This document shows positions 26,983-40,500 of a stretch of DNA of 64,000 bases, in pieces. The position numbers were made by a program, and so were the translations under genes. Numbering within the stretch: position 1 is the first letter of the stretch; each line of letters opens with the position of its first letter. The stretch lies in NCBI GenBank assembly GCA_964613035.1, contig CAZTFQ010000002.1, positions 21,901-85,900 on the forward strand, read 5' to 3'. The notes beneath the pieces were generated by a model that saw only the letters and a program-made list of their open reading frames with translations, did not search any database and was not told the DNA's origin. The stretch is from an uncultured Christensenellaceae bacterium (GTDB lineage: Bacteria; Bacillota; Clostridia; Christensenellales; DTU072).

Positions 26983-28422
26983 TTAATTCTCTTGTACGAG
27001 GATATCGTACTCGGGCATAGGCTTGTTGCGATATTCTTCATCCATTATCGCGAGCTGTTTTTTGATTATGCCTCTCATTCTCACGGCGGGCTCCAGACAA
27101 TATTGTCTCAAGAGCTCCGTATCGACGTCGGAGGGTTGTTTCCAGTGCGGGAAGAGGAGCTTAAGATAAGCGGTCATAATCTTCTTCACGGCATTGGTGT
27201 CACGGGTATCCGCATTGTCGGGGACGACGAGGAACGCGTCCACGAGACCTTTTGAGACAACGTCTTCTCTTAACGCGTGCAATATTTCGGCGAAGTATTC
27301 CGTATTGAGGGCGAAGCCTTCCGCTTTCATACTCTCGTTCATACGAGGGAGTTTCCAGCCCTCGACGAATCCGTGGAAGCGGTCGATGAGCGCGGAGTCG
27401 CCGAAGACTTCCGGCAGTGACTCGAACATATTGACGTTGACGTCCATGACCTCGGATCTGATATTGCCGAGCAAGACCACGCCTGCGTCGCCTTTGCCAG
27501 CCTTGGTGCCGACGGTGTAGGAACCGTTCTCCAGGTATCCTTTCATCGCGCCCTGCATCTCGGACGCGTCGGGGAACTTAATGGTGCTGATTTCGTCCAG
27601 AGCGACGTAGTCGTAATTGGCGACGAGACCGTCGGTCTTTTTACTCATATCGTAGAACATTTTCGCTCTGGTCATAACGCCGCCGCTGGAGAGCCAGCCG
27701 CGCTTGCTGATCTGAGAATAGACGTAGCTTTTGCCGGTGCCCTTGGGGGCGAGCTCGATCATATTGAGTCTCTTCTCGAGGAAGGGAAGGAGTCTGGTAA
27801 GTGCCATCAATTTTCCTTCTCTAGAAGAGTATCCTTCGGGGTTATAATCCATCGCCATCAAGAGGACGTCGATCCATTCGTCCAGCTCGAAATATTTACG
27901 AGCGTTTTTATAATAATCGAGGTCGACGCTATAGGGTAAGAAATTCTTAAAGGACAATAACAGAATTCTGTTCTCCGTCTTCTTGGGGCTGACCTGAACC
28001 TGACCGTACCCCAGCTCTATTATCCCCCATATATCTCCGTCGGTGCCGAGGAGACTGTCTTTACATACGCTCCAGACCTCTTTTGAAATATAGGTGTCGG
28101 AGTTCTTCACGTCGAAGTCGGGCAGAGAAAAGCTGATTTTGTTGGCTTTGATATCGAGCGAAACGTTGATTTTCGCAAGAAACTTCACCTTTTCTCCGTT
28201 CATTATGGAATCGATGATGGCGTTCCATTCTCCCTTACGGGGGATGATGTCTTTTATCTTTTCCAAAACGAAGTCGACGTTGACGTCGCCGTTTTTGTCG
28301 GAATAGCGTTTTATGAACCAGTCTCTGATGAACGCAGGCAGGCTCAGAGCGGAAAAGATGCTCTGGACCGACGACTTTTTAACGACCATTCCTTCGAAAT
28401 ATTGTCTGACTTTTTCTTCCAT
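26983..28422 (-). CDS. P-loop NTPase, possibly BrxL-N-terminal/TIGR02688-like (uncertain family)
   Basis: Walker A LAPKGTGKSY and Walker B YDYVALDEIS. The N-terminal approximately 200-aa domain resembles the BREX BrxL N-region. A 1-nt gap separates it from the upstream AAA gene. Confidence 0.55.
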   Translation of the reverse strand: MEEKVRQYFEGMVVKKSSVQSIFSALSLPAFIRDWFIKRYSDKNGDVNVDFVLEKIKDIIPRKGEWNAIIDSIMNGEKVKFLAKINVSLDIKANKISFSLPDFDVKNSDTYISKEVWSVCKDSLLGTDGDIWGIIELGYGQVQVSPKKTENRILLLSFKNFLPYSVDLDYYKNARKYFELDEWIDVLLMAMDYNPEGYSSREGKLMALTRLLPFLEKRLNMIELAPKGTGKSYVYSQISKRGWLSSGGVMTRAKMFYDMSKKTDGLVANYDYVALDEISTIKFPDASEMQGAMKGYLENGSYTVGTKAGKGDAGVVLLGNIRSEVMDVNVNMFESLPEVFGDSALIDRFHGFVEGWKLPRMNESMKAEGFALNTEYFAEILHALREDVVSKGLVDAFLVVPDNADTRDTNAVKKIMTAYLKLLFPHWKQPSDVDTELLRQYCLEPAVRMRGIIKKQLAIMDEEYRNKPMPEYDILVQEN

Positions 28423-28423
28423 A

Positions 28424-29950
28424 TTATATCTCCATATCGTTTTCGATAACGCCTTTCATGAAGGTAATTTCTTGATTGCAAATGTGATTTTTGGACGATA
28501 TCTCGGCGACGTAGGTACCCGGGGCGTCGATATCCACGACACAACTCCAGTTGCGGATACATTTTTCGCAAGAATAATGCTTGCCGTCCAGCTTGAGATA
28601 CATTCTGTCGTAATCTCCGTCGACGTAGAATCTCAATACGGGGTTTTCTCCGGGTTGCAGAGCTATCAACGTGCTCTCGAACTCGACCGTCGGCGCGTCC
28701 TGAGCGGAGGGGGCTTGAGGTTTCTCTACGGGCTCGGGTTGTACCGCGGGCTGTTCGGGAATAATCTCGGGCACGTCGTCTTCGACGGGTTTTTCGTTAA
28801 GTGAGCGGTCCTTGCCCGCATATTCTTCGAATCGCGCGATTTCCTTTTTGTCGACCATCGGTTTGACCTTTTTTATCGCGTCTACGATATGCTTTTGGGT
28901 GACTTTCATCTCGACGTTCGTGCGGATAAAGCTATTGAGGGGGACGTCCTTGGCGCGATCGCAAATTTCGTCTATATCCGCGCCGGAATAGCCCTCCGTG
29001 AGCTTGGCGATGACGTCGAAGTCCACGTCGTCTTCTATCGGGATGTCCGACAATTGTTTTTTAAGCAGATATTTTCTAGCCGCCTTATCGGGGAGAGGAA
29101 CGTAGATTTTTTCGCTGAATCTTCCCGATCTGACCGCCGCGCCGTCTACGTCCCAGGGGCGATTGGTCGCGCCGAGAAGGAGCAGATTGGGGTTACGTCC
29201 GACGAAGCCGTCTATCTGTTGTAAAAACTCGTTGACGCGCTTATCGTTGTGGGGGTCGTTGCCGCGTTGACCGAAGAGGCTGTCCATCTCGTCGATGAAG
29301 ATGATTGCCAGCTTATCTTTTCTGGCGGTCTCGAAGAGGCTGCTGATGTTCTTTTCCGATTCTCCGACCCATTTACTGACGATATCGGAGCCTTTTATCG
29401 CATAAAAGGTCGCTCCGACCTCGTTGGCGATGGCTTTGGCTATCATCGTTTTCCCTGTGCCGGGAGGACCGTACAGGAGCACGCCGCCGCCGCTTTTTTT
29501 GCCGTAGCGGGCGTATTTCTCGGGATATTTGACGGGATTAATCATCCTCATCCTAATGGACTGCTTGACGTCCTCTAGTCCCGCAACGTCGCTGAATTTG
29601 ATGTCGGGGATGGTTGCGGCTTGCCATTGTTTGGCGTCCTCATCCGACGATGCCGCGTTTTTCTGCCCCGCGGACGGAGCCTTCTTCGGCGTAGTCTGAC
29701 CCGCCGTGCCGCCGATGACGGCGCCGCCTTCCAGATTCTCGGCGATCTCGATGAGCCTTTTCGCTCTCTCGAAGCGAGCCTTTTTCAACTCGCCGGTATC
29801 TTCTTTGGCAAGTTTTATGAGAGCCTGAGCCGCGCGGAGGAGGTTTTCTTTGGCACCGGCGACGTCTCCCCTCTGCTGGGCTTTTTTGGCGTTGTCGTAA
29901 TACATAAGAAACGTATCGTATATGAACGTGCTCTTATCTTCATCCCTCAT
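28424..29950 (-). CDS. Vps4/katanin/spastin-clade AAA+ ATPase with an N-terminal MIT-like domain and a novel Cys-containing C-terminal domain
   Basis: The MIT-like helical N-terminus is YDNAKKAQQRGDVAGAKENLLRAAQALIKLAKE. The AAA core is GVLLYGPPGTGKTMIAKA...SDIVSKWVGESEKNISSLFETARKDKLAIIFIDEMDSL, near-identical in pattern to Vps4. The C-terminal approximately 110 aa contain a CxxC...C...C arrangement. Confidence 0.85.
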   Translation of the reverse strand: MRDEDKSTFIYDTFLMYYDNAKKAQQRGDVAGAKENLLRAAQALIKLAKEDTGELKKARFERAKRLIEIAENLEGGAVIGGTAGQTTPKKAPSAGQKNAASSDEDAKQWQAATIPDIKFSDVAGLEDVKQSIRMRMINPVKYPEKYARYGKKSGGGVLLYGPPGTGKTMIAKAIANEVGATFYAIKGSDIVSKWVGESEKNISSLFETARKDKLAIIFIDEMDSLFGQRGNDPHNDKRVNEFLQQIDGFVGRNPNLLLLGATNRPWDVDGAAVRSGRFSEKIYVPLPDKAARKYLLKKQLSDIPIEDDVDFDVIAKLTEGYSGADIDEICDRAKDVPLNSFIRTNVEMKVTQKHIVDAIKKVKPMVDKKEIARFEEYAGKDRSLNEKPVEDDVPEIIPEQPAVQPEPVEKPQAPSAQDAPTVEFESTLIALQPGENPVLRFYVDGDYDRMYLKLDGKHYSCEKCIRNWSCVVDIDAPGTYVAEISSKNHICNQEITFMKGVIENDMEI

Positions 29951-29965
29951 GACGTATTCCTCTTA

Positions 29966-30550
29966 TTATTGTTTTAAGCTCTTAGCCAGTTCTTCCAGCT
30001 GGCGGTCGATATCGTTGTCCAGAGACTGCTCCTCGTCGGAAGCCTGGTTGCCTATAAGCGCCTCCAACTCGCTGTCGTCGATGTTGATGTTGGAAGACGA
30101 AATCGCGGTGAAGGTATCGTTGGTGGAGTCGAGCATGGCGTCGAGGTTGTCGGTGGTCTCTTCCACGCCCATCATCGCCGCTTCGAATTCCTTCTGGACC
30201 TTGGCGAAGTTCATATCCTTGGTAATAGCCTGCATTTCCTTAGAAACGACGCTCATTCCTTTAAGAAACTCGCCCGTCATCTGGCTCAAATCGCGCATTT
30301 GGAGAGTGTTTTGGAAATTAAGAAGCATTTCCTTGGCTTTTTTCTCCTGAGCCATAGCGGTCCTTAAGCAGCTGACTGCCAGGCTGTATTGCTGAGGAGA
30401 GCCTTGAATCTTAGCCTGTTTTGCGGATTCTACGGCTTTTTGTTTCTGAGCCTGGAGCTTGGTGATATGCTTCTCTATGTCGCGCATGGTCCTGCGCACG
30501 AGCATTCTCTTCTCCATTTCTTTTTCTTGTTTTGTCTTAAAGAGTCCCAT
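29966..30550 (-). CDS. Snf7/ESCRT-III-like protein (CHMP3/Vps24-like) with a C-terminal MIM-like motif
   Basis: The N-terminus MGLFKTKQEKEMEKRML... matches MGLFGKTQEK of Vps24. The N-terminal half is basic and the C-terminal half acidic. It ends DIDRQLEELAKSLKQ, resembling MIM1 (D/E)xxLxxRLxxL(K/R). Confidence 0.75.
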   Translation of the reverse strand: MGLFKTKQEKEMEKRMLVRRTMRDIEKHITKLQAQKQKAVESAKQAKIQGSPQQYSLAVSCLRTAMAQEKKAKEMLLNFQNTLQMRDLSQMTGEFLKGMSVVSKEMQAITKDMNFAKVQKEFEAAMMGVEETTDNLDAMLDSTNDTFTAISSSNINIDDSELEALIGNQASDEEQSLDNDIDRQLEELAKSLKQ

Positions 30551-30561
30551 AATAATTACCT

Positions 30562-31164
30562 CTAGATGGAAGAGCTCTCGCTCTGCTTGTTTTCTTCTTC
30601 GGATATCTCGGAGCCGAAGTTTTCCGCGTCTTTTTCCGAGCCGGATATTTCAAACATACTGAGGAGTTGATCGTCCTGCTCGTTGATTCCGTAGATGCGT
30701 TCGTCCGCCTCGTAGGCGTCCTCGACTTCTTCGAAGGTCTCCAAAGTCTCCGACAGCATACTTTCGCTACGCATTTTTTGTCCGGATATTCCGCTGATAA
30801 ACTTACGGAGCGCGTTGGTGTCCGTAAGAAGCTTGTTGATAGGCATATCGGAATTGTTGTTGATGAATTCCTTATCGTCTATTGCGGTCTTGAGCTGATT
30901 GAGCGCGAGAAGATTGGCGTTGAGATACTGGATGCGCTGATTAGCCATCTGATTCTCTTTACGTAAAAGATTGATACGCTTGGCAAGAGTCAACTGTCTG
31001 TCGCGGCTCTTGGTCTCGCTACCAGCCTTAAGGAGCTTCTCTATCTCTTTTTCCCTCTCCTCGACGGCGTCCATTTCTTCTTGCTGTTTTTTCTCGACGT
31101 TGATTATGTTTTCCACAACGTCGCTACGTTTGATTTTCTCAAACTTATTCTTAAAAAAGCACAT
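30562..31164 (-). CDS. Snf7/ESCRT-III-like paralog (200 aa)
   Basis: The N-terminus MCFFKNKFEK follows the same M-[GC]-[LF]-F-[KQ]-x-K pattern. It is predicted coiled-coil with a basic N-half and an acidic C-tail. Confidence 0.6.
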   Translation of the reverse strand: MCFFKNKFEKIKRSDVVENIINVEKKQQEEMDAVEEREKEIEKLLKAGSETKSRDRQLTLAKRINLLRKENQMANQRIQYLNANLLALNQLKTAIDDKEFINNNSDMPINKLLTDTNALRKFISGISGQKMRSESMLSETLETFEEVEDAYEADERIYGINEQDDQLLSMFEISGSEKDAENFGSEISEEENKQSESSSI

Positions 31165-31166
31165 TT

Positions 31167-31520
31167 TTATACCCCCGCCAGACTGTTGCGCTCAACAATC
31201 ATTATCCTGACGTCGTTGATTTTATCGAGAATTTTTCCTTCGTTTTTATCTCCGGATATCAGAATCTTGATATCGTCCAGCTTATCCGCTATTTTGTCGT
31301 CTTCTTTCATGACTGCGGGTGCGGTGGAAGGCGCGCCGTACTCGACGAGTTCTTCCAGCTCGCGGAGCTTCTCTTTGACGACGTCGGACTCGGACATCGC
31401 TATCAGAGTCTTGACCTTGGCAAGATTGATACGCAGGGTCTCGACGTTATCCTTTATCGCCTCGTCGTGCTTGTCGTATTGTTTTTGATGTTTTTTATAC
31501 TTGGATTGGAAAAAACACAT
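31167..31520 (-). CDS. Short Snf7/ESCRT-III-like paralog (117 aa)
   Basis: N-terminus MCFFQSKYKK. Helical with charge asymmetry. Perfect RBS AAGGAG. It lies 2 nt from the next gene. Confidence 0.5.
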   Translation of the reverse strand: MCFFQSKYKKHQKQYDKHDEAIKDNVETLRINLAKVKTLIAMSESDVVKEKLRELEELVEYGAPSTAPAVMKEDDKIADKLDDIKILISGDKNEGKILDKINDVRIMIVERNSLAGV

Positions 31521-31532
31521 AATCTTATCTCC

Positions 31533-32468
31533 TTATTGTAATCTGTTGCCGCATTTGTTGCAGAACAATGCGTCCGCGCTGACCTTGGCGCCGCACTTGG
31601 AGCAGTATCTGCATACTTCAGCATTGCTGTTGACCACTACCTTGGGTCCGCTGTTTTTCTCGGCGTCCGCGGCGACTTCCGCAAGTTTGACGGTAGCGTC
31701 CACGTACATCTTGGCTGCTTCTTGTCTGGAAGCTCTTTCCTTAGAAAAACTACTGTCTTTAAGCTCGAGAAGTCTCTTTTGTTTGAGAATGGCTTCCAGC
31801 TCTCTGATATCGCTGTCGGCGATTTTGACGTCGTTGAGAGAGAACGCCGTTATTTCCACGCCGTAGTCGTCGAACATCTTTCTGACGCTGTCCAAAATGG
31901 TGTCGCAGATGATTTCCAGATTGGAATTGATCTCGAAATAGCTTATCTTGCTACGCTGCATGGCGTTGGCGATGATGTCCTTGATTTTTACGAGCATTTT
32001 ATCCGCGAAAAACTTCTGGAGCCCGACCGTGGTTATGCCCGCGGTGTTGCCTACTACCTTGGAGATAAACTTACGAGAATTGCTGATATTGATATCGAAA
32101 GAGCCGTGCATTCCTACGTTGACGATATAGTCCGCGAAGGGATCTCTGACTTTCATCTGAGAGGGCGTGCCCCACGGTACGATCAGAGTAACGGTCTTGT
32201 TGACGAAAAACGCCTGACATTTAAAAGGCTCGCTGACGATCTTCTTGCCTATGCCCAAGAATCCTTTCGATACGACGGGCACGTTGAGAGAGTGCTTACC
32301 CGGCAACATCGTGTCCAACATCTGTCCGTCCTTAATAAATACGACTTCGTGAGAAAAAGGAACGATTACCTCTGTCTCCCCTATACATTGCTCGATCTGA
32401 GACTGCCAAACGATAACCTCGTTGGGTCCCTCATAGTCGATAATGGTTTTCGGTAAATCTTTTGCCAT
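31533..32468 (-). CDS. SPFH (stomatin/prohibitin/flotillin) domain protein with a C-terminal Zn-ribbon (COG4260-like)
   Basis: The N-terminus IIDYEGPNEVIVWQ is typical of this SPFH subfamily. The C-terminus carries CRYCSKCG...CNKCG. Confidence 0.7.
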   Translation of the reverse strand: MAKDLPKTIIDYEGPNEVIVWQSQIEQCIGETEVIVPFSHEVVFIKDGQMLDTMLPGKHSLNVPVVSKGFLGIGKKIVSEPFKCQAFFVNKTVTLIVPWGTPSQMKVRDPFADYIVNVGMHGSFDINISNSRKFISKVVGNTAGITTVGLQKFFADKMLVKIKDIIANAMQRSKISYFEINSNLEIICDTILDSVRKMFDDYGVEITAFSLNDVKIADSDIRELEAILKQKRLLELKDSSFSKERASRQEAAKMYVDATVKLAEVAADAEKNSGPKVVVNSNAEVCRYCSKCGAKVSADALFCNKCGNRLQ

Positions 32469-32486: not shown

Positions 32487-33815
32487 TTAATACATATTTT
32501 TTTTGCTTTCCAGCAATGAAGCTTTTTGTTCCAGCCACTCCGCAAAACCGTTGATTTCCACCAACTTGGACTCGTAGCCGCCGCGCAGTCTGCCCATCTC
32601 GTCCAGAATCTGCATCATATGAGAATCGTCCCAGGATCCCGTGAGTCGTCCGAGCGCGTAGAGACACTCCGTGATGACGTTATTTTGCCCGTTGCCGTAG
32701 TCTCTCAATTTCCTCGCCAACAACCTCAGCGCCTCGGGATTGGTACGGACGTCTCCGCCGCCCGTCGAATAAGAACCGCGAACGCCTTCCGCCGATACGG
32801 AACCGCCCGACGACGATTCTCTGCCTCCGCCGTACGAAGGAGCTCTTTTCTCGGGAGCTTTTTCGGGAGCCTTCTCGGGGGTTGCTTTTTCCTTTTCGGC
32901 GACAGGCTCGGAAGCCTTTTCTACGGGTTTCTTTTCCTCGCGGACGAATTGTTTCGCCGCCAATCGAAGAATTCCTTCGAAGTCGCCGTTGCCTATCTCG
33001 AAATAAGGATTGCGCTTGAGTTCCGACGGCATATCGTCGATATCGCAGTCGTACAAGGCGAGGCAGGCTTTTTTGGACGGATCGCTCTTAGCCATCCGCA
33101 GATAACGTCTCCAGACGTCTTCCGCCTGCGTGAGGTTGCAATTGTCAAGCGACGACGTCATTACTATCAACAGCTTGGCTTTCGATATCGCGTTGTAAAG
33201 ATACGGTTCGCGTTCGGTCGGTCCGAGATTTCCCAACTCCGCGCCGCTCCAGAAAACCTTCTTTTTCGTACGTGCTTTCAGTGCCGCGACCAGAGGCATC
33301 GCCAGGGACGCTTCCGGGGAATATTCCTCGCAACACACCATGATGTCGTAGTCGGATTCTTTAGCTATTCTTAAGGCGTTGTTACGCAGTCTGTCCAGCT
33401 CTTCCGCCTTGTAAGCGTATTCTTCCGCCATACTCCCGGGACATAGCGACATGGCTTTTTTATAATAAGCGCTGTCGAAAAACGATTGCGAGCCGATTTC
33501 GTAAAACACCGGACACAAACCATCGTCGTATTTTGAATAAGTCAGGTGCTTGGACGCCAGCATCAATCCCCAGGCGGCTTCGAAGCTGTCGGGGGCATCT
33601 TTCAAAATAGACTCGTAGTCTTCCATCGCCTCTTCGAACTTCGCTTTCCGTCTATACGCGCTCGCGCGGTTAAGATTGATAATGAGCTCGTCGGAGACTT
33701 TAGTAAGATCTATTTCGAACTTCGAATGACAATATATGCACTCGTAGGAGCCCTCGGCCACCTTTTCCAGCGCGCCTCCGCACATTTGACATTCCAGTTT
33801 TCTTAGTTCTGCCAT
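32487..33815 (-). CDS. Zn-ribbon/TPR-like protein with a possible TIR-like (flavodoxin-fold) domain, a PEK-rich linker and a helical C-domain
   Basis: The N-terminus is CQMCGG...YECIYCHSKF. The middle block DIMVCCEEY...KKKVFWSGAELGN...KAKLLIVMTSS has a TIR-like beta-alpha pattern. A (PEKA)n linker follows. The ATG at 33815 overlaps the upstream stop (TGATG). Confidence 0.5.
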   Translation of the reverse strand: MAELRKLECQMCGGALEKVAEGSYECIYCHSKFEIDLTKVSDELIINLNRASAYRRKAKFEEAMEDYESILKDAPDSFEAAWGLMLASKHLTYSKYDDGLCPVFYEIGSQSFFDSAYYKKAMSLCPGSMAEEYAYKAEELDRLRNNALRIAKESDYDIMVCCEEYSPEASLAMPLVAALKARTKKKVFWSGAELGNLGPTEREPYLYNAISKAKLLIVMTSSLDNCNLTQAEDVWRRYLRMAKSDPSKKACLALYDCDIDDMPSELKRNPYFEIGNGDFEGILRLAAKQFVREEKKPVEKASEPVAEKEKATPEKAPEKAPEKRAPSYGGGRESSSGGSVSAEGVRGSYSTGGGDVRTNPEALRLLARKLRDYGNGQNNVITECLYALGRLTGSWDDSHMMQILDEMGRLRGGYESKLVEINGFAEWLEQKASLLESKKNMY

Positions 33816-35923
33816 CACGCACCTCTGTTGCTATCGAGAGCGCTGCCCGAAAAAGCCGTCGAAGAGACGTCGCAATCTTCTTTATAGACGACCTCGACCA
33901 GAGACGTACAATTGCCGAAGGCGTATTCGCCGATAGTGTCGGCGTTGCGGCAATCGACCACTCTCAGCCCGACACAATCGAAAAACGCATAACTGCCGAC
34001 GTTGCCTTCCACGAACACCTTTTTAAGGGACTCGGGGACTTCGTAGCCGCCGAAAAAGTATGCGAGACCCGAGACGTAAGTACCGCCGTTGGTGAGGCTT
34101 TGGACCGTCAACTCCTCTAGTCCCGTGCATCCGTACAACGCACCGTATCCGAAATCTGCGCTACAGGGTAAATCTAATTTTTTAAGAGAGCGACAATTGG
34201 CGTACGCGTTCTCTCCCACGTATATGAAAGTGTTGGCGGAATAAGTCTTGACGGTTATTTTTTGTACATCGATGAGATTGGCAAAGACTTCCGAAGGAAT
34301 AGAGCAAGTCGACGACAAGCTTGTACGCGCGTTGCTGTATTCCACTATTTTCAACGATTTAGGTATATAACTTCTTATTGTGGATTCATTTAAATCGCCG
34401 TCGTATTTCGTCGCACCGAAAAATCTCGAAATACTAGAATTACTAACGTTGTCGAGGTTGTCCTCGAAGACGAGTTTTTGGAGATTTTTGCATCCGGACA
34501 GCGCGCCCTGTTCGATGAGTCTGATATTGTCGCCGATAGTCAGAGAGATTATCGCCTCGTTGCCGCGGAAAGCGTTTGCTCCCAGTCCGACGACGTCGTA
34601 TTCCGTACCGTTGAGCGTAACCTTCTCGGGCACGACGACCTCGTAGTATCCGGGATAAGACGACGATTCCTCACTATCAGGGAAGCTCTTCACGCCCTCT
34701 ATACGCGCGACCAAATCTTCGTTGTCGAAGGAAAGACTGAAAAGATATCCTTCGTCTGAGAGGTTGTATTCTCCCGCCGTGAATCCTTTTAAGAACAAAT
34801 ATCCGCCGGTAAGACCTACCGCCAGGACGAGTATCAACACGATGAAGCTCGTCCAGAGTCTGCCTTTATACTGAGGCGCGTATTTACATTTATGTTTGAT
34901 TTTCTTCCAAGTTACGGGGTCTTCTATTACGATAACGCCTTCCTTCTTCTTGCCGGACTTCTTTTTCTTATGTCCGATAATAAGGAACAGCACGTTGAAC
35001 ACCAGCGAAAATCCCGCCAGACCGAGTCCCAAGAAACAGGCGATTATGTAAAACGCATACGCGCTAAGCATGAGTTCTTCTTGCGCCAGCATCGCGAGAG
35101 GTCCCGCGAAAACAGCCAGCGCCGCGCCCGACGCCACGCCGATGATCATCGACAACCAGGACATGAGCGTGCCTTTTCTTCTGCCTCTCTTTATCTTCTC
35201 GTCGACGCACTGCGCGAGGTCCGCGGTATGCTTTTTACTGTTACTTTTAATAACTGAATAGTTTTTTTTGTATTTTTCGGCGATGGCGTCTTCCTTATTG
35301 CGATATTCGTCCAGATGCGCCTCGAACTTGTCGTTATTCTTGAAGCTTACCTCGGCTTTGGAAGAGAACACGTGAGGATAAGTACCGCGTCTAAGGTCGT
35401 GAAAATCGGCTTCTGCCGTCTCCCAAACCTCTTCCGAATAACCTTTCATCCGATCGGAAACGAAAGACTGCTGAAGATACTTCTTCCCTGCGGAAACGTT
35501 GGATTTTATTTGTTTTTTCTCGGTCGACAATATTTCCGAGTCTTCTTCGATAGGCTCGAGAACGATTTCTTCCGTTTTCTTTTTCCCGCGCTTTTTAGAA
35601 GCCGATTTGTCTTCTTTGGGAGAGGGGGCTTCTACAACTTCTTCGACGACTTCTTCGTCGTCCTCGGATTCCTCCGCGAAAAACGCCTCGATATCGTCCT
35701 CGTAGTCGGAGTCGTCTTCTTCGTCTTCTTCGTAGTATTCTTCCTCTTCGACTATTATATCGTCGTCGTATTCTTCGTTGACGGAAATAGTCGACTCTTC
35801 GTCGGAAGCGACTTCTTCGGATTTCTTATTAGCCTCTTCTTGCGCCAGCATGTTTTGCTTCTCTTCAAGAAGTTTTTTCAACTCTTCGATGGTTAAATTG
35901 TTGAGATCGTCTTTTTTACCCAT
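33815..35923 (-). CDS. Membrane protein: hyper-acidic cytoplasmic N-region, 3-4 TM helices and an extracellular BspA-type leucine-rich-repeat domain
   Basis: An EEYDDDIIVEEEEYYEEDEEDD tract. Hydrophobic helices lie around residues 255-360. The C-terminal repeats with IGEYAFGNCTSLVEV are typical of BspA-like LRRs. Confidence 0.65.
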   Translation of the reverse strand: MGKKDDLNNLTIEELKKLLEEKQNMLAQEEANKKSEEVASDEESTISVNEEYDDDIIVEEEEYYEEDEEDDSDYEDDIEAFFAEESEDDEEVVEEVVEAPSPKEDKSASKKRGKKKTEEIVLEPIEEDSEILSTEKKQIKSNVSAGKKYLQQSFVSDRMKGYSEEVWETAEADFHDLRRGTYPHVFSSKAEVSFKNNDKFEAHLDEYRNKEDAIAEKYKKNYSVIKSNSKKHTADLAQCVDEKIKRGRRKGTLMSWLSMIIGVASGAALAVFAGPLAMLAQEELMLSAYAFYIIACFLGLGLAGFSLVFNVLFLIIGHKKKKSGKKKEGVIVIEDPVTWKKIKHKCKYAPQYKGRLWTSFIVLILVLAVGLTGGYLFLKGFTAGEYNLSDEGYLFSLSFDNEDLVARIEGVKSFPDSEESSSYPGYYEVVVPEKVTLNGTEYDVVGLGANAFRGNEAIISLTIGDNIRLIEQGALSGCKNLQKLVFEDNLDNVSNSSISRFFGATKYDGDLNESTIRSYIPKSLKIVEYSNARTSLSSTCSIPSEVFANLIDVQKITVKTYSANTFIYVGENAYANCRSLKKLDLPCSADFGYGALYGCTGLEELTVQSLTNGGTYVSGLAYFFGGYEVPESLKKVFVEGNVGSYAFFDCVGLRVVDCRNADTIGEYAFGNCTSLVEVVYKEDCDVSSTAFSGSALDSNRGA

Positions 35924-35976: not shown

Positions 35977-36252
35977 TTATTTTATCAGCCCCGAGTATCT
36001 CTCCATTATGTCGAGCCTCTGCGTCACGCCGTCGTCCACCGTCGCTCTGTACGCCGCCACGACTTGCAGAAGAGCCTCCAGCTCCGATAATATCTCTCCC
36101 GTGAGATTGTCTATACTCTTCTCCGTCGCGATATCGCTAAGAGAATCTTTTAGCAGGATATACTCGGACTCTATTCTTTCGTGAAGTTCCGCCGTACACG
36201 CTCTGAAAGCGAGAAGCTTCTCGGGAGTGTTATCTATCGTTATTCCGCTCAT
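35977..36252 (-). CDS. Small helical protein (92 aa)
   Basis: The ORF-track N-extension overlaps the upstream gene. The internal ATG at 36252 gives a 4-nt overlap (ATGA) with the upstream stop, typical of translational coupling. Confidence 0.45.
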   Translation of the reverse strand: MSGITIDNTPEKLLAFRACTAELHERIESEYILLKDSLSDIATEKSIDNLTGEILSELEALLQVVAAYRATVDDGVTQRLDIMERYSGLIK

Positions 36253-36761
36253 AGACCGAATCTCCTCGCGTTGAGATATTCTCCGACGCAATTTTCGCAG
36301 GCGTCGACGAGTGCCGCTCTCGCTCCGAATGTCTCTCCCAGAGCGTTGAGCAATCGGCTGATTTCCGAAGTGAGCTCGTCGGCTCTCTCTATCCTTTTGT
36401 CGACGAAACCGCATATCTCCTCTATAACGGAGATATTGGCGGAGAGCTCTTTACAAAACTCGTCTATTCCGTCGATGTCGGCGGCAAGTTTTTCAGACTC
36501 GCCTTCGTTTTTGTCAAACAACTTTTCCTCGCTGCTGACGGAAACGAGATCGTTTTCCATGGCGACGCGTCTGGTGTTGCGCTCTTCGATGATGGCGTTA
36601 AGTTTCCTCTTCTTGTCCTCGAGATTTTCGCGGACGGACGAGGCGATTTCTCTTGCCGCGGCTATTTCCGAGGAATACGCGCCGACGTTTTCCGCAATCG
36701 TCGCGTACAGCTTGAAATAGACGTTCTTTGCCGCTTCTATCGCGTCGAGATTGACTTTCAT
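36249..36761 (-). CDS. Coiled-coil protein (170 aa)
   Basis: RBS GGAGGAG. Heptad-like helical sequence. Stop/start overlaps on both sides. Confidence 0.5.
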   Translation of the reverse strand: MKVNLDAIEAAKNVYFKLYATIAENVGAYSSEIAAAREIASSVRENLEDKKRKLNAIIEERNTRRVAMENDLVSVSSEEKLFDKNEGESEKLAADIDGIDEFCKELSANISVIEEICGFVDKRIERADELTSEISRLLNALGETFGARAALVDACENCVGEYLNARRFGL

Positions 36762-37021
36762 CGGTTCTCCTCCGCACGCGCATACGCCGCTCTCAAAAGG
36801 TTGTCGAGGTCTTCCGCGGGTACTGCCGCCACCGCCTCGTTGAGGGCGGTAAAGAATTCTTCGTCGCTTCTTTTCAACAAGAGCGCGACGTTACTGAGAT
36901 CTTCTATTCCGCTACCGAGAACCGCCGCGCCTACTTCGTCGTCCCATTCCGCGGACAACTCGTCGATAGACGCGCGGGCTTCCGCTATAGCCGCCAGACA
37001 ATCGTCGATATACTTACTCAT
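36758..37021 (-). CDS. Small helical protein (87 aa), WXG100-sized
   Basis: All-helical and acidic with a central W (AEWDDEVG). It has 4-nt overlaps with its neighbours. Confidence 0.5.
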   Translation of the reverse strand: MSKYIDDCLAAIAEARASIDELSAEWDDEVGAAVLGSGIEDLSNVALLLKRSDEEFFTALNEAVAAVPAEDLDNLLRAAYARAEENR

Positions 37022-37284
37022 GAGTCAAGATACATACACAGCCAGTTGTAAACTTCCTGACAAAAGCCGTCTATGGCGTTGAGTCTGCCGAGAATTTCCG
37101 ACAAGTCTGCCGTTATTCCCTGGAAGTTGTTAAGAAACTTGACCACGTTGGCGTCTTTCCATTCCGACAGACTCTGTTCTATCTCCGACACCATCTCGGA
37201 ATGATTTTGGACAAGCGCCTGCTCGGTCTGTCTCACTATGTTCTGAGCCGTCAGTACGGACTCTTTGCTTACGTTGACGTTCAT
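37018..37284 (-). CDS. Small helical protein (88 aa), WXG100-sized
   Basis: RBS GAGGAAAGA. Helix-turn-helix-like hairpin with a central SEWKDA. Confidence 0.5.
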   Translation of the reverse strand: MNVNVSKESVLTAQNIVRQTEQALVQNHSEMVSEIEQSLSEWKDANVVKFLNNFQGITADLSEILGRLNAIDGFCQEVYNWLCMYLDS

Positions 37285-37292
37285 TCTTTCCT

Positions 37293-37559
37293 CTACTTGA
37301 GCGTAATGCTTCTATATAAGTCGATGAGCTCTTGTTTTTGCCTGATGACGTTTTCGACGCCGTCGGTCTTGGAAACCAGCTCGTCGGCAATCGACAACAA
37401 CTTGACCGCGACTTCTTCCGCGTCGGCGTAATCTCGGTCGGCACAATTCTCTTTCAGCGCCTGTACTTTACGCAGATAATCGACGCACGCGTCTCTTACT
37501 TCTCCGACGACTCTTCCGAGCGCTCCCTCGTCTACGGAACCGCTTACCTTTACTTCCAT
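37293..37559 (-). CDS. Small helical protein (88 aa)
   Basis: Helical. It overlaps the 3' end of the upstream ATPase gene by 10 nt. Confidence 0.5.
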   Translation of the reverse strand: MEVKVSGSVDEGALGRVVGEVRDACVDYLRKVQALKENCADRDYADAEEVAVKLLSIADELVSKTDGVENVIRQKQELIDLYRSITLK

Positions 37560-40500
37560 AGAGCGTTATAATCCTCTGCCAGCTTAACCATCCAGGCTTC
37601 GTCCGCTTCGCTGTAGTATCTGTACGGCTTAAACTTATTCATCTCGTTGTTGACGAGGCATACGCCCAGTCCTTCTATGCCGATATTGATATTGCTTCTA
37701 AACGATGCGACCGATGTGACGGCTTCCGCGTCGAGTCCCTTGATGAAGACCTTGTTCTGACAATTACGCATAACGGTATTGATGCTGGGGACGCTGGACG
37801 GCTTGTCTATCGAGAACACTATATGAATATTCTGGTTGGGTCCGTTTTCGAACACGTCGTTGAACAGTTGCGAAAAAGTCATCTTGTTGCCGCCGGAAGA
37901 CGCCGCGCCGCCTAAGTTGAGTCCGAGACTGAACCCCATTCCGGACGATGACGCCACGGGTGCGGGGGCGGGTTTTTCGGACAAATCGATGAGCTTGGAG
38001 TTGTCCTTGAAGTAAGACGCTATCTCCTGAATTTTGTTTATGAACAGGAATATCGGATTGTGCTTATCCTGAATATGGTCTGCTCTCTCTTTTCTGAGAT
38101 TATGAAGCTTGACCAGAGCATCGGTGAGATCTCCCGCGGCATTCAAAACGCGAGTCGAATCCGCGAAATACTTAGGCAGGACGAAGAACAGGTCGTCGGG
38201 GTTTTTCTGACTGATGACTTCGCCGTTGAAGTAGTACACCTGCGCGGAGGAGTCGTTTTCAAAGTCTTGGTTGGTACGGTTTTCCATAAGCACGGACAGC
38301 ATGGAAAAGCCCATCATATCTCTCAGCACCTCTACGTTGGCGCCGGCGAACCACAGGTTGGAATTGGACTCGCGCAGACGTATCGGGATATTGTACGGCT
38401 TGCCGGAGATGTAATCCTGACCGATAGCCAGATTGTAGAAGTCGGCGGACTTGGAGACGATATCTTCTTTCGAGACTTTTTTCGTGTAAGCGGAGAGACC
38501 CTCGTTGGCTTTGGGCTCTTCGAGGTTGCTGCCGACGACGAAGAGCGGCTCTCTGACGCTCCACTTGGAGACGACGTCTTGCCACTTCTCTATAATGCGC
38601 TCGGAATACATCTCTCTGTTGTCGGAGTTTTCCGCATACGCCACGCGGAATTCAGCCGCGTTCTGTCCAGTACGGGTATCCTTGATGATGCCTACGCCCA
38701 AGGTATTGGACAAATTGGCTACTTTAGATACGCTTATGCCCAGTTCTTGCGCGTCGTCGGGATTGTTGAGTTTAAGAGAAATTCTGTTGCCTATCTGAGA
38801 AATGACCTTGTCTCTGAGTCCCGCCACCTTAGGCACGTTCTGCGACGCCCAGAGCACGTTGATGCCGAAAGCTCTGCCTTTTTTGAAGAGCTTGGACATA
38901 AGATTGATGGCGTAGGTGCCGACGTTTTGGTCGCGCTCGAACAGTTCCTGAACCTCGTCGATGATGACAAGCAGTCTCGGGAGCGTCTTACCGGCACGCT
39001 TCTTGTATTGCATGATGTCTTCCACGTTGTTGTTGCGGAAGAGCGCCTCTCTTCTCTCCAGCTCTTTGTCTATGTTGGACAACACCGCGAGTCCGTCCTC
39101 GGGGTCGGAAGAAAGCGCCGTCAGCTTGACGTGAGGAAGTTGTTTTTCTACGTTCTTGTTGGCTTCGTAATACTTGAATTCCACGCCGCCCTTGAAGTCG
39201 ACCAGGTAGATGTTGAGGTCGTCGGGGCTGTACTTATAGCACGCGGACATAACGATGGCGTGGAGTAGGTTGGACTTACCGCTACCGGTACCGCCTATCG
39301 CCAGAGCGTGAGCCGCGCCGTCGCCCTTGGACGAAAACGCCAGAGTCTGAACGTCTCCGCCTCTCATACCTATCGGGATATCGATAATCTCCGTAGGATC
39401 CGCGTAATCCTCGCTCTTGACGACGACGTCGGTGCTGTCGAACATCTTGGACAGTGCGATAACCTTGTTGGCGCTCTTCTTGATGTTCTGTTTCATAACC
39501 TTGATGTAGTCGTCCAGCTTTTCGTACGAGCAGTCTTTATTGTTTTCGAAAACGTATTTGGGATTGGCTTCCAAATAAATTTCGCCGCCCTTAACGAGGA
39601 AATAATTCATCGATTGCTTCGCCTCCGCGACGAAGTCTTTTATGTACTGGGGCTGAGTGCCCTTGCCGTTGTACAGCATTATCGTGAATATACCGGAACG
39701 ATTGCCGTTGTCGATGATTTTTTTGAGTCTCTTGACGGTCTTCTCGCTGCTGAAACATTCCGGGAAACCGACTATCGACAACACCGAGAACGCCTGGGGG
39801 TCGTTTTCGGAAACGACGTTGTAACCGTAGATGTCTTTTTTGTTGCTACGAGTGATTTTATCGTCGTAGATACTGCCCATTCTCTCGTCAAGATTGACAA
39901 TCTCGTTGGACACTCTCGAATCGTCGTTGTAAGTCTTTTTGAATAGATTGTTGTCGATGTTGTTGAGCTGGTTGAACGCGGCGAATTCTCCCGTATCGTA
40001 GAGGTCTATCAGTTGATAATTGACCCTCGTCGGCGGGAACCCCATCAAAAACGACAACATAATGTTGCGCACCATCGATATGGCGACCGCATTATCCTTG
40101 TCGGAATCCACTTCTATCAAAACGTTGCCGTTCTTTTTCAACTCCAGCACGTACGGCGCGGTCAGTACGCCGCCGGGCGTGTATTTGCCGAGTAAGGGAC
40201 TGTCGGTAGAATTGATATATTTTTTGTAGCCGTCCTTATCGAGATAACTGATCTTCATATCGCCGAGAGTCAGCTTGGTGGGATAAGTAAGACTGCCTTT
40301 TTCGAAGTCTACCTTGCCGCTCTTGGCAGACTCGTAAATGTCGCAAAAACGGTCGTCGTTGAGAACATTGTCTTCTACCTGAAGTCTGTTCTTGAGAGCG
40401 GAAGCCATCTCCTTATTGAGGACCGCCGCGCAATCTGCCATATATTCTTCCGACTGCTTTTTGAGATGTTTATCGAATTTTTTAAGGTCGAAACGTCTCC

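Follow-up and report, generated by a model that had tools for sequence, protein, structure and literature searches.

The LRR-TM protein, so named here for its leucine-rich repeats (LRR) and its transmembrane (TM) helices, is encoded in a 64,000-nucleotide stretch of DNA from an uncultured Christensenellaceae bacterium (hereafter the window), and is the sole product with TM helices among the 15 genes of its operon. We tentatively propose, giving the idea slightly less than an even chance, that it serves as an outward-facing sensor and as the membrane anchor of soluble machinery. The operon itself is a rare bacterial pairing of ESCRT-III/Vps4-like membrane-remodelling proteins with a secretion-type ATPase. 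The open reading frame was confirmed exactly at the coordinates given in the earlier note, on the minus strand and with an ATG start (Table 1), and the start codon is backed by the N-terminus M[GA]KKDD..NLTIEEL, which is conserved in two orthologues; orthologues P0002 and P0003 are co-linear with the protein over its full length at 56% identity. Its location inside an operon was likewise borne out, with 53 nt between it and the upstream gene and an overlap of 4 nt downstream; the best promoter-like site lies at 41232-41204, and the only strong terminators around the 15-gene transcription unit lie at 41327-41302 and 23845-23820. No hydrophobic segment was found in the EssC/FtsK-like ATPase, SPFH, ESCRT-III-like, AAA ATPase, BrxL or p443 proteins, and the last gene of the operon has a signal peptide as its only hydrophobic feature.

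Table 1. Features of the LRR-TM gene and its surroundings (positions counted from the first nucleotide of the window).
Feature	Position	Strand	Basis or description
LRR-TM protein, whole ORF	33815..35923	-	702 aa, ATG start; stop codon 33815-33817
Conserved N-terminal amphipathic helix (LTIEELKKLLEEKQN), residues 1-38	35810..35923	-	many invariant alignment columns
Hyper-acidic disordered tract, residues ~36-100	35624..35818	-	composition, pLDDT below 35
Conserved non-acidic cytoplasmic domain, ~115 aa, residues 135-250	35174..35521	-	alignments; separates acidic tract from TM helices
TM1, residues ~253-280	35084..35167	-	KD hydropathy, AF2 helix, charge bias; RGRRKG just before
TM2, residues ~284-318	34970..35074	-	hydropathy, AF2, charge bias
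K/R-rich cytoplasmic loop, residues 319-353	34865..34969	-	HKKKKSGKKK...DPVTWKKIKHKC.Y.P.YKGRLW, 14 K/R
TM3, residues ~354-382	34778..34864	-	hydropathy, AF2, charge bias
BspA-type LRR_5 ectodomain, residues 386-702 (~315 aa)	33818..34768	-	Pfam, AF2, Foldseek, PDB sequence matches, motifs
p443, next gene downstream, 4-nt overlap	32487..33818	-	Zn-ribbon, TPR, degenerate TIR-like domain, disordered linker, C-terminal helical domain; no TM
Upstream module	35977..41086	-	ATPase and five small helical proteins, always co-occurring with the LRR-TM gene
TM-less EssC/EccC-like FtsK ATPase	37550-41086	-	profile matches
Five small helical proteins	37293-37559, 37018-37284, 36758-37021, 36249-36761, 35977-36252	-	
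Downstream soluble machinery	26983..32468	-	YdjI-like SPFH with Zn-ribbon, three ESCRT-III-like proteins (117, 200, 194 aa), Cdc48/CdvC-like AAA ATPase, short BrxL

The architecture described in the earlier note held in outline, but not the extent of the acidic region or its adjacency to the TM helices. At the C-terminus, where a BspA-type LRR domain of ~330 residues had been claimed, such a domain is present and slightly shorter. Pfam LRR_5 (PF13306) matched it in three stretches with a score above the gathering threshold (E=3.3e-21, 76 bits vs. a cut-off of 27.7), and AF..C..L motifs mark 7-8 repeat units, with two FFG...(I/V)P.SLK insertions. Residues 390-700 were modelled by AF2 at a pLDDT of ~82-93 as a curved parallel β-solenoid, for which the best Foldseek matches in the PDB were the BspA-type structures 4fs7, 4gt6 and 4h09, together with TpLRR (6mlx) and PcpA (4cp6), at a probability of 1.0; TM-scores were low because the full-length model served as query, and 4fs7 was also matched at the sequence level (7.8e-14). 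By HMM score, fold and motif the domain belongs to the same repeat family as the BspA-type proteins BACOVA_04585 (4fs7), FAEPRAA2165_01021 (4gt6), TpLRR and PcpA. However, typical BspA-type proteins carry an N-terminal signal peptide and are then secreted, lipid-anchored or wall-anchored, whereas the LRR-TM protein has three internal TM helices and adds ~250 cytoplasmic residues and a location in an operon of cytoplasmic machines. A signal peptide is absent from it, the N-terminus being highly charged and the first hydrophobic segment lying after residue 252.

Based on Kyte-Doolittle hydropathy, AF2 helices and the positive-inside rule, the orientation is predicted to be N-in/C-out. The AF2 helices 253-279, 285-322 and 353-383 agree with the hydropathy segments, and all 12 family members follow the positive-inside pattern, in which 5-7 K/R precede the first TM helix, the first loop has 0-3, the second 8-14, and 1-3 lie past the last TM helix; the variant with five TM helices keeps an odd number. 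The LRR domain is therefore predicted from this charge bias to be extracytoplasmic, as had been proposed. The TM2-TM3 loop (35-43 aa), predicted at low confidence to form a β-hairpin (AF2 strands 327-334 and 341-348), is highly conserved among three close orthologues, with invariant columns. Keeping in mind that the ectodomain begins ~10 residues past TM3, in a monoderm such as a Christensenellales relative it would be positioned beneath the wall, which argues against direct host-cell contact.

On the cytoplasmic side, the earlier note had described ~130 N-terminal residues with more than 50% Asp/Glu, followed by the TM region. The acidic tract is real, but the first 130 residues contain 41% D/E (53/130). 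The tract proper has 36 D/E in 65 residues, a net charge of -36 and no K/R in residues 41-100, and its best 60-aa window holds 35 D/E (58%); with 15.4% D/E in the operon as background, this enrichment has a length-corrected binomial P of ~2e-11. It is predicted by AF2 to be disordered. Among relatives the composition recurs and the sequence does not, with the length varying between orthologues; seven of the 12 family members reach a maximal D/E fraction of 0.52-0.60 per 60-aa window, and the remaining five reach only 0.28-0.40. Three hydrophobic segments do follow, but farther on and not directly adjoining, residues 101-134 being mixed or basic and succeeded by the conserved ~115-aa domain. 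The latter (signature YL..FV..QM..Y...VWE..D.DY......GTY.HVF ... YR..E.) had no family match in Pfam and NCBIfam, and was detected by a family HMM (E=1e-11) in the 1307-aa homologue from L005, a type which has a Zn-ribbon where the window protein has its N-terminal helix (AF2 helix 12-38, pLDDT 60-67). No recognisable signalling domain was found in the cytoplasmic part, where AF2 confidence is low (pLDDT <50).

The slot of the gene is constant in every FtsK-type operon, in five lineages (window/L001/L002, L003/L004, L005/L006 with L011, L091). The gene is restricted to operons also bearing the TM-less EssC/FtsK-like ATPase and the five small helical proteins, and no homologue was found in ~75 of 81 species-level or metagenomic loci that have the ESCRT-III-like/AAA/SPFH core but no FtsK module. 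The slot in FtsK-type operons is thus fixed, but absence from otherwise conserved homologous operons, which the earlier note had named as counting against its reading, was in part observed. The LRR-TM protein hence accompanies the ATPase and the small helical proteins as an accessory and does not belong to the ESCRT-like core. Within this range the gene is duplicated in tandem in L003/L004, and the L005/L006 form reaches 1307 aa, with 5 TM helices and an 815-aa ectodomain. Considering that LRR_5 proteins are very common on the surface of gut Firmicutes and Bacteroidetes (PDB 4fs7, 4gt6, 4h09), and that rapid evolution and copy-number change are typical for such adhesins, the protein could be a BspA-like surface protein or adhesin of the ordinary kind, located in the operon by chance and without a mechanistic role. 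We regard this as highly improbable, since five diverged lineages have the gene in a fixed slot with the same genes on either side, it overlaps or closely abuts the next one, and no terminator or promoter isolates it; moreover, an exhaustive HMM search with the cytoplasmic/TM module returned only 4 clusters among 1.84 billion representatives, all in such operons, and in sister operons the TIR protein has independently acquired LRR_5.

The LRR-TM protein is also the fastest-evolving product of the operon, with 56% identity to its counterpart in L001 vs. 79-96% for the ATPase, p443, SPFH, ESCRT-III-like, AAA and BrxL proteins; relative to L003 the values are 26-28% vs. 55-88% for the other conserved operon proteins. 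Other fast products in the comparison with L001 are the small helical proteins s87 (63%) and s170 (60%) and the secreted Flg_new protein (64%). Between two strains with an operon dS of ~0.05, the LRR paralogues have a dN of 0.060 and 0.069, at least 4-fold that of any other operon gene (at most 0.0145), with indels, a dS raised to 0.14-0.17 and a dN/dS of 0.35-0.49, which stays below 1. Such fast evolution fits an exposed recognition surface, as expected; by part, however, the identity is 59% in the cytoplasmic domain, 70% in the TM region and 59% in the ectodomain, and the divergence is not ectodomain-focused.

EsaA/YueB of firmicute type VIIb systems are polytopic membrane proteins with a large ectodomain, and YueB is the receptor of phage SPP1. 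The LRR-TM protein is likewise predicted to be polytopic, with a large outer domain and a gene beside an ATPase that resembles EssC and small proteins that may be WXG-like, and might be the analogous membrane component of a type VII-like secretion system: a dock or conduit, probably oligomeric, for the FtsK-like ATPase exporting the small WXG-like helical proteins, with the LRR as an adhesin or wall-spanning contact rather than a sensor. The strict tie of the gene to this ATPase and these proteins, and its absence from most core loci without them, agree with such a role, as does the ATPase itself, which has no TM helices of its own and is closest to T7SS EccCa (2e-33) and EssC (1e-30), albeit with scores far below their cut-offs. 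Weak matches of s88b to WXG100 (E=7.5e-4, 20 bits, below the Pfam cut-off of 27.3) and of the p443 C-terminus to WXG100_2 (0.029) point the same way, and the other fast genes (s87, s170 and the secreted Flg_new) fit exported or exposed products. We nevertheless find the type VII-like role rather unlikely. No homology to EsaA, EssA, EssB, EccB, EccD or EccE was found in Pfam/NCBIfam, LRR_5 being the sole match, nor any similarity to YueB or T7SS membrane proteins; EssA, EssB and YukD-like genes, like those of the other components named, are absent from the operon, and TM number and ectodomain fold differ from those of EsaA/YueB. Further, only one P-loop domain could be recognised in the ATPase, a chain with three TM helices offers little to build a channel from, and the recurrent LRR_5-TIR fusions in ATPase-less operons are left unexplained.

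The ESCRT-III-like and Vps4-like assignments are tentative. The ESCRT-III-like protein of the window scored 22.8 bits with Snf7, below the cut-off of 27.3, and 13 of 24 homologues matched Snf7 at E≤0.01 (best 2.8e-8). The AF2 model consists of four long helices (pLDDT 78), for which the top Foldseek matches, CdvB and CHMP2A, had a probability of 0.99 but E-values of 0.05-0.2, and a profile search against the PDB gave CHMP2A at E=0.87 only. The AAA ATPase has one classical AAA domain (141.7 bits), with 19.8 bits for Vps4_C (cut-off 21.3) and 217 bits for the CdvC model, below its equivalog cut-off of 650 and slightly exceeded by Cdc48 D2; Pfam MIT had no match in it, and its N-terminal helical region is MIT-like by eye only. 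Budding driven by machines of the ESCRT-III/Vps4 type is directed away from the cytoplasm, so the LRR domain could end up on the surface of a vesicle. The LRR-TM protein would then be both cargo and address label for outward budding, its acidic tail and cytoplasmic domain being recognised by basic ESCRT-III-like or SPFH proteins and sorted into extracellular vesicles that display a variable LRR ligand. Its standing as the operon's only membrane protein, a variable and expandable ectodomain, and an acidic tract for which the N-terminal helices of the three ESCRT-III-like proteins, being strongly basic, are possible binding partners are compatible with this. We consider it improbable nonetheless, as it is entirely inferential, leaves vesicle passage through a monoderm wall unaccounted for, and has to contend with an acidic tract that is weak in several homologues and with core operons that in their majority have no LRR-TM protein. 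In archaeal ESCRT systems, SPFH-coiled-coil-Zn-ribbon and TM-linked sorting proteins occur as accessories (Makarova et al. 2024, PMC10936438). As predicted for the window, these systems encode ESCRT-III-like paralogues and an AAA ATPase of the Vps4/Cdc48 type alongside an SPFH-Zn-ribbon protein and a set of membrane proteins in which TM linkers join on a variable extracytoplasmic domain. The window system differs in being bacterial (Christensenellales relatives), in having no ESCRT-I, ESCRT-II, adaptin or GOLD domains, and in its LRR_5, TIR, EssC-like ATPase and BrxL partners, which are not described in PMC10936438.

A link between LRR_5 and TIR domains is provided by related operons: of 74 TIR proteins of the p443 family there, 45 are membrane-anchored and 12 carry LRR_5. 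The HMM of the TIR_2-positive family matched p443 of the window at E=1.5e-62, although Pfam TIR gave no match and the W-x-x-E motif is lost. TIR-3TM-LRR_5 fusions occur in L026 and L075 and a TIR-1TM-LRR fusion in L034, with TIR_2 and LRR_5 above Pfam cut-offs, whereas in FtsK-type operons p443 lacks both TM and LRR. No TM segment was found in 6 of the 12 TIR-LRR_5 fusions, so the LRR is predicted to be cytoplasmic there; LRR_5 in this operon family is thus predicted not to be intrinsically extracellular and to be able to act in the cytoplasm. Since no homology was detected between the LRR-TM cytoplasmic/TM module and the TM regions of TIR-TM-LRR fusions, a "split receptor" rests on domain-type analogy, not on traceable gene fission. 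The common logic with Toll-like receptors is a variable LRR outside (predicted here) and a TIR-family protein inside, here encoded by two overlapping adjacent genes and in the L026 and L075 fusions by one chain. The fusions, however, have the reverse order, with TIR N-terminal and LRR C-terminal, three TM helices take the place of the single one, and the repeats are of the LRR_5 class without LRRNT/LRRCT caps; Pfam TIR had no match in the LRR-TM protein, the degenerate domain of the window residing on the separate p443, and TIR-LRR fusion is found only in other loci. The resemblance is almost certainly convergence, not whole-receptor homology.

[quoted passage not shown] The SPFH protein of the window (Pfam Band_7_1 and Zn_Ribbon) is of the same type as in the YdjI system and co-operonic with the LRR-TM gene, and in both cases a TM-less Band_7_1 SPFH-Zn-finger protein, an ESCRT-III-superfamily protein and one or more membrane proteins are encoded together. 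An LRR ectodomain and an acidic tail set the LRR-TM protein apart from YdjG and YdjH, and the likeness is drawn from gene context; the filament protein here is Snf7-like, not PspA-like, and the window operon adds the AAA ATPase, the EssC-like ATPase, the TIR-like protein and BrxL. By analogy, the LRR-TM protein is a candidate YdjG/YdjH-type anchor that would bind the SPFH and ESCRT-III-like proteins.

The receptor-like role in sensing or anchoring put forward in the earlier note is thus retained, but only for an accessory. In its favour are the architecture with its charge pattern and predicted outside LRR, the sole-TM status, the fixed slot, the p443 overlap, fast evolution and the TIR-(TM)-LRR_5 fusions; against it, most related operons work without any LRR, the divergence is spread over the whole protein and 5 of 12 homologues have only a weakly acidic tract. 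We hypothesize that the accessory module of the operon has one integral-membrane subunit, the LRR-TM protein, whose rapidly diversifying LRR domain forms a ligand-recognition (sensor) surface on the outer face of the cytoplasmic membrane, where we infer that it binds an external or envelope ligand. The N-terminal helix, acidic tract, 115-aa domain and lysine-rich loop would provide a docking platform for soluble components at a defined membrane site. Candidate docked partners are p443 and, together with the small WXG-like proteins, the TM-less EssC/FtsK-like ATPase; the cytoplasmic part presumably binds p443, the ATPase or the ESCRT-III-like proteins, and via docked partners the YdjI-like SPFH, ESCRT-III-like and AAA proteins would be brought to the membrane. 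The protein would be the in-trans equivalent of the in-cis TM and LRR_5 extensions of the TIR protein (TIR-3TM-LRR_5), and ligand binding may trigger or localise membrane remodelling. New here are the sole-TM status of this protein, its fastest evolution, its tie to the FtsK-like module and the LRR_5-TIR fusions in related operons.

The best-supported reading of the LRR-TM protein (702 aa) is that of a membrane-spanning receptor and anchor of the system with which it is encoded. Its gene occupies exactly the position assigned by the earlier note and is indeed part of an operon, a single tightly packed minus-strand unit in which neighbouring genes overlap by 4–10 nt or are separated by gaps of 8–53 nt. 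The start codon is sound, because two full-length orthologues, P0002 and P0003 (56% identity), begin with the same M[GA]KKDD..NLTIEEL motif. By hydropathy, it is the sole carrier of TM helices among the 15 operon proteins examined, none being found in the ATPase, SPFH, ESCRT-III-like, AAA and BrxL proteins or in p443, the TIR-like protein encoded next downstream.

Features of the operon, its surroundings and the TIR-LRR proteins of related operons
Feature	Sequence	Position	Strand	Remarks
Strong terminator	window	41327-41302	-	just downstream of CTP synthase gene
Best promoter-like site	window	41232-41204	-	11/12 matches; after terminator 41327-41302
EssC/EccC-like FtsK-family ATPase	window	within 35977-41086	-	first gene; 1178 aa
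Five small helical proteins	window	within 35977-41086	-	88, 88, 87, 170, 91 aa; second (s88b) weakly WXG100, E=7.5e-4
LRR-TM protein	window	33815-35923	-	702 aa; ATG start
p443	window	32487-33818	-	Zn-ribbon, TPR, TIR-like domain, disordered linker, helical C-terminus
YdjI-like SPFH (Band_7_1) protein	window	within 26983-32468	-	C-terminal Zn-ribbon
p117, p200 and Snf7-like (ESCRT-III-like)	window	within 26983-32468	-	117, 200, 194 aa; basic N-termini MCFF../MCFF../MGLFKTKQEK; last Snf7-like
Classical AAA ATPase	window	within 26983-32468	-	Cdc48-D2/CdvC-like; weak Vps4_C
Extra C-terminal domain of AAA ATPase	window	28424-28750	-	residues ~400-508
Short BrxL	window	26983-28422	-	TIGR02688, 434 bits, above cut-off
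Secreted trypsin-like/Flg_new protein	window	23869-26922	-	last gene; 1017 aa; signal peptide, weak Trypsin_2, Flg_new/InlB B-repeats
Next strong minus-strand terminator	window	23845-23820	-
Thiol_cytolysin ORF	window	21120-23753	+	877 aa; E=5.7e-33
TIR-3TM-LRR_5	L026	13504-17937		1478 aa
TIR-3TM-LRR_5	L075	4594-7785		1064 aa
TIR-1TM-LRR	L034	12566-17125
TIR-TM-LRR-TM	L069, L071
TIR-LRR-3TM	L080
TIR-LRR without TM	L042 (twice), L053, L062, L075b, L081			six proteins

Several neighbours have features of their own. The FtsK-family ATPase is closest to EccCa and EssC of type VII secretion systems (T7SS) and has only one detectable P-loop domain, with neither a TM helix nor an FHA domain; the weakly WXG100-like s88b is 97% identical to its counterpart in L001, a relative locus from another genome. 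The AAA ATPase carries an additional Cys-containing, beta-rich domain without a Pfam match, and BrxL, which recurs in a minority of related operons, is present without other BREX genes. The secreted Trypsin_2/Flg_new protein evolves fast (58–64% identity) and is replaced by a cytoplasmic Zn-ribbon-trypsin protein in the operon variants L007, L009, L026, L075 and L081. Zn-ribbons recur on the N-terminus of p443, the C-terminus of the SPFH protein and the N-termini of the trypsin-like proteins of L007 and L009, and in L005 (2868-2960) one stands in place of the N-terminal helix of the LRR-TM protein; they may represent a shared recruitment module of these operons. Adjoining the operon on the opposite strand is an ORF with a cholesterol-dependent cytolysin domain, and it may or may not be by chance that a pore-forming toxin is encoded next to an operon with a putative role in membrane repair or remodelling. 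In the flanking sequences of L003, L005 and L091 Pfam detected no Thiol_cytolysin domain, and the L001 and L002 sequences end inside the Flg_new gene.

Description of the operon as ESCRT-like is reasonable, though not proven. The Snf7-like protein of the window matches Snf7 with 22.8 bits, below the cut-off, and E<=0.01 is reached by 13 of 24 family members (best 2.8e-8). Its AF2 model has four long helices (pLDDT 78), and the top PDB matches, CdvB and CHMP2A, were returned with a probability of 0.99 but E values of 0.05–0.2, and the family profile had no significant match in the PDB. The C-terminus of the protein, DIDRQLEELAKSLK, resembles an MIM1 motif, and the N-terminus of the AAA ATPase is helical and looks MIT-like by eye, although Pfam gave no MIT match. 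According to reviews, systems composed of ESCRT-III and Vps4 are absent from bacteria and confined to archaea and eukaryotes.

The architecture of the LRR-TM protein differs in part from that proposed in the earlier note. A hyper-acidic region exists, but instead of being more than half Asp/Glu, residues 1–130 contain 41% of these residues; the acidic stretch proper spans residues ~36–100 (36 D/E per 65 residues, with no K/R in 41–100). Its densest 60-aa window holds 35 D/E (58%) against an operon background of 15.4%, an enrichment with a length-corrected binomial P of ~2e-11. The tract is disordered in the AF2 model and weak in 5 of 12 homologues. Nor does it lead directly into the membrane: a mixed or basic linker (residues 101–134) and a conserved, non-acidic 115-aa domain (residues 135–250) intervene. 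The latter bears the signature YL..FV..QM..Y...VWE..D.DY....GTY.HVF...YR..E and has no match in Pfam or NCBIfam; likewise, neither PADLOC nor NCBIfam includes a family for the protein. Three hydrophobic segments follow (~253–280, 284–318 and 354–382), coinciding with helices of the AF2 model, which was built from a 3-sequence alignment and, with pLDDT <50 at residues 35–201, 224–251 and 319–354, is not usable for the cytoplasmic and TM parts. A weak match to MFS_1 (17.6 bits, cut-off 33.4; E=0.0019) was discounted as noise from the hydrophobic segments, and an MIM1-type motif, sought by eye in the N-terminal helix, does not fit. As had been recognized, the protein ends in a BspA-type LRR domain, here of 315 aa, on the evidence of Pfam (LRR_5, 76 bits; cut-off 27.7), AF2 (pLDDT ~82–93), Foldseek and PDB sequence matches. 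It contains 7–8 AF..C..L repeat units and two FFG...(I/V)P.SLK insertions, and both structure and sequence searches rank the gut-bacterial BspA-type LRR proteins 4fs7, 4gt6 and 4h09 first, followed by TpLRR and PcpA. In itself, this LRR_5 domain is ordinary.

Based on the positive-inside rule applied to 12 homologues, the protein is predicted to be oriented N-in/C-out. All 12 share one pattern, with 5–7 K/R in the 20 residues ahead of TM1, 0–3 in the short TM1–TM2 loop, 8–14 in the TM2–TM3 loop (35–43 residues with 14 K/R in the LRR-TM protein itself) and 1–3 in the 20 residues past the last TM; there is no N-terminal signal peptide. The 1307-aa homologue of L005 and L006 has five TM helices, and since the odd number is kept, its acidic N-terminus and LRR should lie on opposite sides of the membrane. 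The claim of an extracellular rather than cytoplasmic LRR thus agrees with the predicted topology. Caution is nevertheless needed as to how far the domain reaches, as it begins only ~10 residues past TM3 and in a monoderm would sit at the membrane surface beneath the wall; among named relatives, Christensenellales MAGs come nearest.

The gene of p443 overlaps the LRR-TM stop codon. Although p443 itself has no match to Pfam TIR, an HMM built from 68 homologues of other operons aligns with it end-to-end (E=1.5e-62), and many of these homologues exceed the TIR_2 cut-off (37–43 bits against 28). Among 74 non-redundant members of the p443 family, 45 have TM helices C-terminal of the TIR and 12 carry LRR_5 domains, in diverse arrangements (see table). 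Some operons (L075, L081) encode two paralogues with differing C-termini. In L026, L075 and L034, as well as L042, L053, L062 and L081, single polypeptides encoded within the operons combine Zn-ribbon, TPR, TIR_2 and LRR_5, and where 1–3 TM helices lie between TIR and LRR the layout is like that of a reversed Toll-like receptor; in the L062 protein, TIR and LRR are separated by a 4Fe-4S dicluster (Fer4) domain. In the ATPase-type operons, those with the FtsK/EssC-like ATPase, p443 has neither TM nor LRR, and a separate adjacent gene supplies both membrane anchor and LRR. The W-x-x-E motif, which holds the Glu that we take to be catalytic in TIR NADases, is kept by 61 of 77 family members and is missing from p443 and all its orthologues in ATPase-type operons, so that from its sequence the TIR of p443 seems to be a scaffold and not an enzyme. 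A weak match to WXG100_2 (E=0.029) covers the last 85 aa of p443. We also considered the LRR-TM protein as a fission product of the TIR-TM-LRR fusions; however, its module HMM matches L001–L006 only and no fusion protein, and the TIR-3TM protein of L009 shows no similarity to it. Judged by these comparisons, the TIR/LRR pairing is recurrent recruitment of one domain type, not a traceable gene split.

Relatives of the LRR-TM protein are few. A word-indexed search of 5.8 billion proteins returned only the protein itself and two orthologues, and when 1.84 billion representatives were searched exhaustively with a profile of the cytoplasmic and TM module, four clusters emerged, while the Snf7-like family is far wider (81 clusters). 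Exact-sequence look-up of the protein and of P0001 gave no recorded contig. Two JGI metagenome scans with profiles of the LRR-TM protein found no relatives; neither did IMG/VR scans with these and the Snf7-like profiles, and a phage-borne origin is therefore unsupported. All members with fetched genomic context (which excludes P0090) occupy an identical slot in operons of one type. This holds for L001 and L002; in L003 (2475-6693) and L004 (2426-6674) the gene is tandemly duplicated, encoding far-diverged paralogues of 698 and 676 aa. The L005/L006 form combines an N-terminal Zn-ribbon, acidic tract and 815-aa LRR ectodomain, with homology in the cytoplasmic domain (family HMM E ~1e-11), and L091, from a Christensenellales MAG, has a 614-aa form beside the same ATPase module. 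A scan of GTDB species genomes added 80 loci, L011–L090, from Christensenellales, other Clostridia, Izemoplasmatales, Anaeroplasmatales and Haloplasmataceae; in the truncated L011 the same LRR C-terminus adjoins a p443 homologue. Across L001–L091, three ESCRT-III-like paralogues, the AAA ATPase and the SPFH-Zn-ribbon protein are conserved in at least 80 species. In some variants the flanking genes hint at a setting in signalling or in a defence island: the core variant L008 (11922-16183) is flanked by genes for FHA, PP2C and Ser/Thr-kinase proteins, and genes of restriction or helicase type flank L006 (16990-20579; ResIII/Eco57I) and L007 (10628-17856; SNF2, RuvB-like and TnsA-like).

In the presence/absence matrix, the core comprises the TIR protein, SPFH, p117, p200, Snf7-like and AAA proteins, with or without Zn-ribbon-trypsin and BrxL. 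The EssC-like ATPase, the small helical proteins and the LRR-TM cytoplasmic module co-occur, in the matrix only in L001–L006 (L091 was fetched later). The proposal that the LRR-TM gene is a component of the ESCRT-like operon is thus borne out for ATPase-type operons, where its slot is kept, and not for the otherwise conserved core operons from which it is missing; the gene is an accessory travelling with the ATPase module. This co-occurrence is best explained by the main rival to a receptor and anchor, a T7SS-like membrane partner of the TM-less EssC-like ATPase, which leaves the TIR-LRR fusions unexplained. The two readings are not mutually exclusive.

The LRR-TM gene also evolves unusually fast. 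Between the window and L001 its product is 56% identical, as compared with 84% for the ATPase, 79% for p443, 94% for SPFH, 88% for p117, 95.5% for p200, 96% for Snf7-like, 87% for AAA, 91% for BrxL and 91% for the flanking CTP synthase; only two small helical proteins, s87 (63%) and s170 (60%), and the secreted Flg_new protein (64%) come near. Against L003 it falls to 26–28%, the conserved set retaining 55–88%. Divergence is spread over all parts of the protein, identity being 37% in the acidic N-terminus, 59% in the cytoplasmic domain, 70% in the TM region and 59% in the ectodomain. Estimates of dN/dS come from the close pair L003/L004, two strains whose Snf7-like proteins do not differ and whose operon shows a dS of ~0.05; at 56% protein identity synonymous sites are saturated, and the window, L001 and L002 were for that reason left out. 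Between the strains, the two LRR paralogues share 88% and 87% identity, all other genes 97–100%. Their dN is 0.060 and 0.069 (<=0.0145 in other genes) and their dN/dS 0.35–0.49, against 0–0.25 elsewhere with the exception of the 93-aa s93 (0.57, on very few substitutions). Their dS of 0.14–0.17, ~3 times the value found elsewhere in the operon, is likewise raised and accompanied by indels, which suggests recombination or allele exchange at the locus and marks a polymorphic interface gene rather than whole-gene positive selection.

As a receptor and anchor, the LRR-TM protein would hold the otherwise soluble operon machinery at the membrane. A precedent for the anchor half is found in B. subtilis, where recruitment to the membrane of PspA and of YdjI, a soluble SPFH-Zn-finger protein, depends on the co-operonic membrane proteins YdjG and YdjH (PMC8581546); in the operon of the window, all the machinery is soluble and the LRR-TM protein is the sole TM protein. 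The acidic tract may plausibly pair with the very basic N-terminal helices of the ESCRT-III-like proteins. The ectodomain would sense a ligand outside, as argued from its predicted location, strain-level hypervariability, changes in copy number and size, and the repeated pairing of LRR_5 with TIR. As this pairing occurs on either side of the membrane, general variable ligand recognition fits better than wall anchoring. The arrangement resembles a Toll-like receptor, with LRR outside and a TIR-family protein inside, and sister operons encode TIR-3TM-LRR_5 as a single chain. It is conceivable, if rather unlikely, that the LRR-TM protein and p443 form a split analogue of such a receptor, whose output would be not NAD+ cleavage but recruitment of the ESCRT-III/Vps4-like scission or repair machine and the EssC-like translocase to the site of an envelope cue, for example phage penetration. 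A survey of TIR defence in E. coli lists TM domains and LRRs among the Toll-like features seemingly absent from bacterial TIR systems (PMC11350192).

In the searchable literature we found no description of operons combining ESCRT-III/Vps4/FtsK/SPFH, Snf7/PspA/WXG or BrxL/Vps4. The combination of an acidic disordered tract, a family-less cytoplasmic domain, three TM helices and LRR_5 is equally new to it, as are the restriction to ATPase-type operons and the relation to TIR-TM-LRR_5 fusions in ESCRT-III-like/AAA operons. The surrounding system is more remarkable than the LRR-TM protein; this protein, as its sole membrane-embedded and predicted sole surface-exposed part, would set the site at which the machine acts and probably the cue that it answers, and is a natural entry point for experiments, its strain-level hypervariability offering a natural allele set for ligand hunting. 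Were its role limited to that of an anchor or a T7SS-like component, it would still show a route by which soluble ESCRT-III-like, SPFH and ATPase proteins get to the membrane. If it is both sensor and anchor, extracellular recognition and ESCRT-like remodelling of membranes would be linked in a lineage of gut Firmicutes. Should the split Toll-like analogue be real, it would represent an undescribed bacterial immune or repair pathway leading from sensor to membrane remodelling, and a bacterial example of ESCRT-III and Vps4-type machinery.
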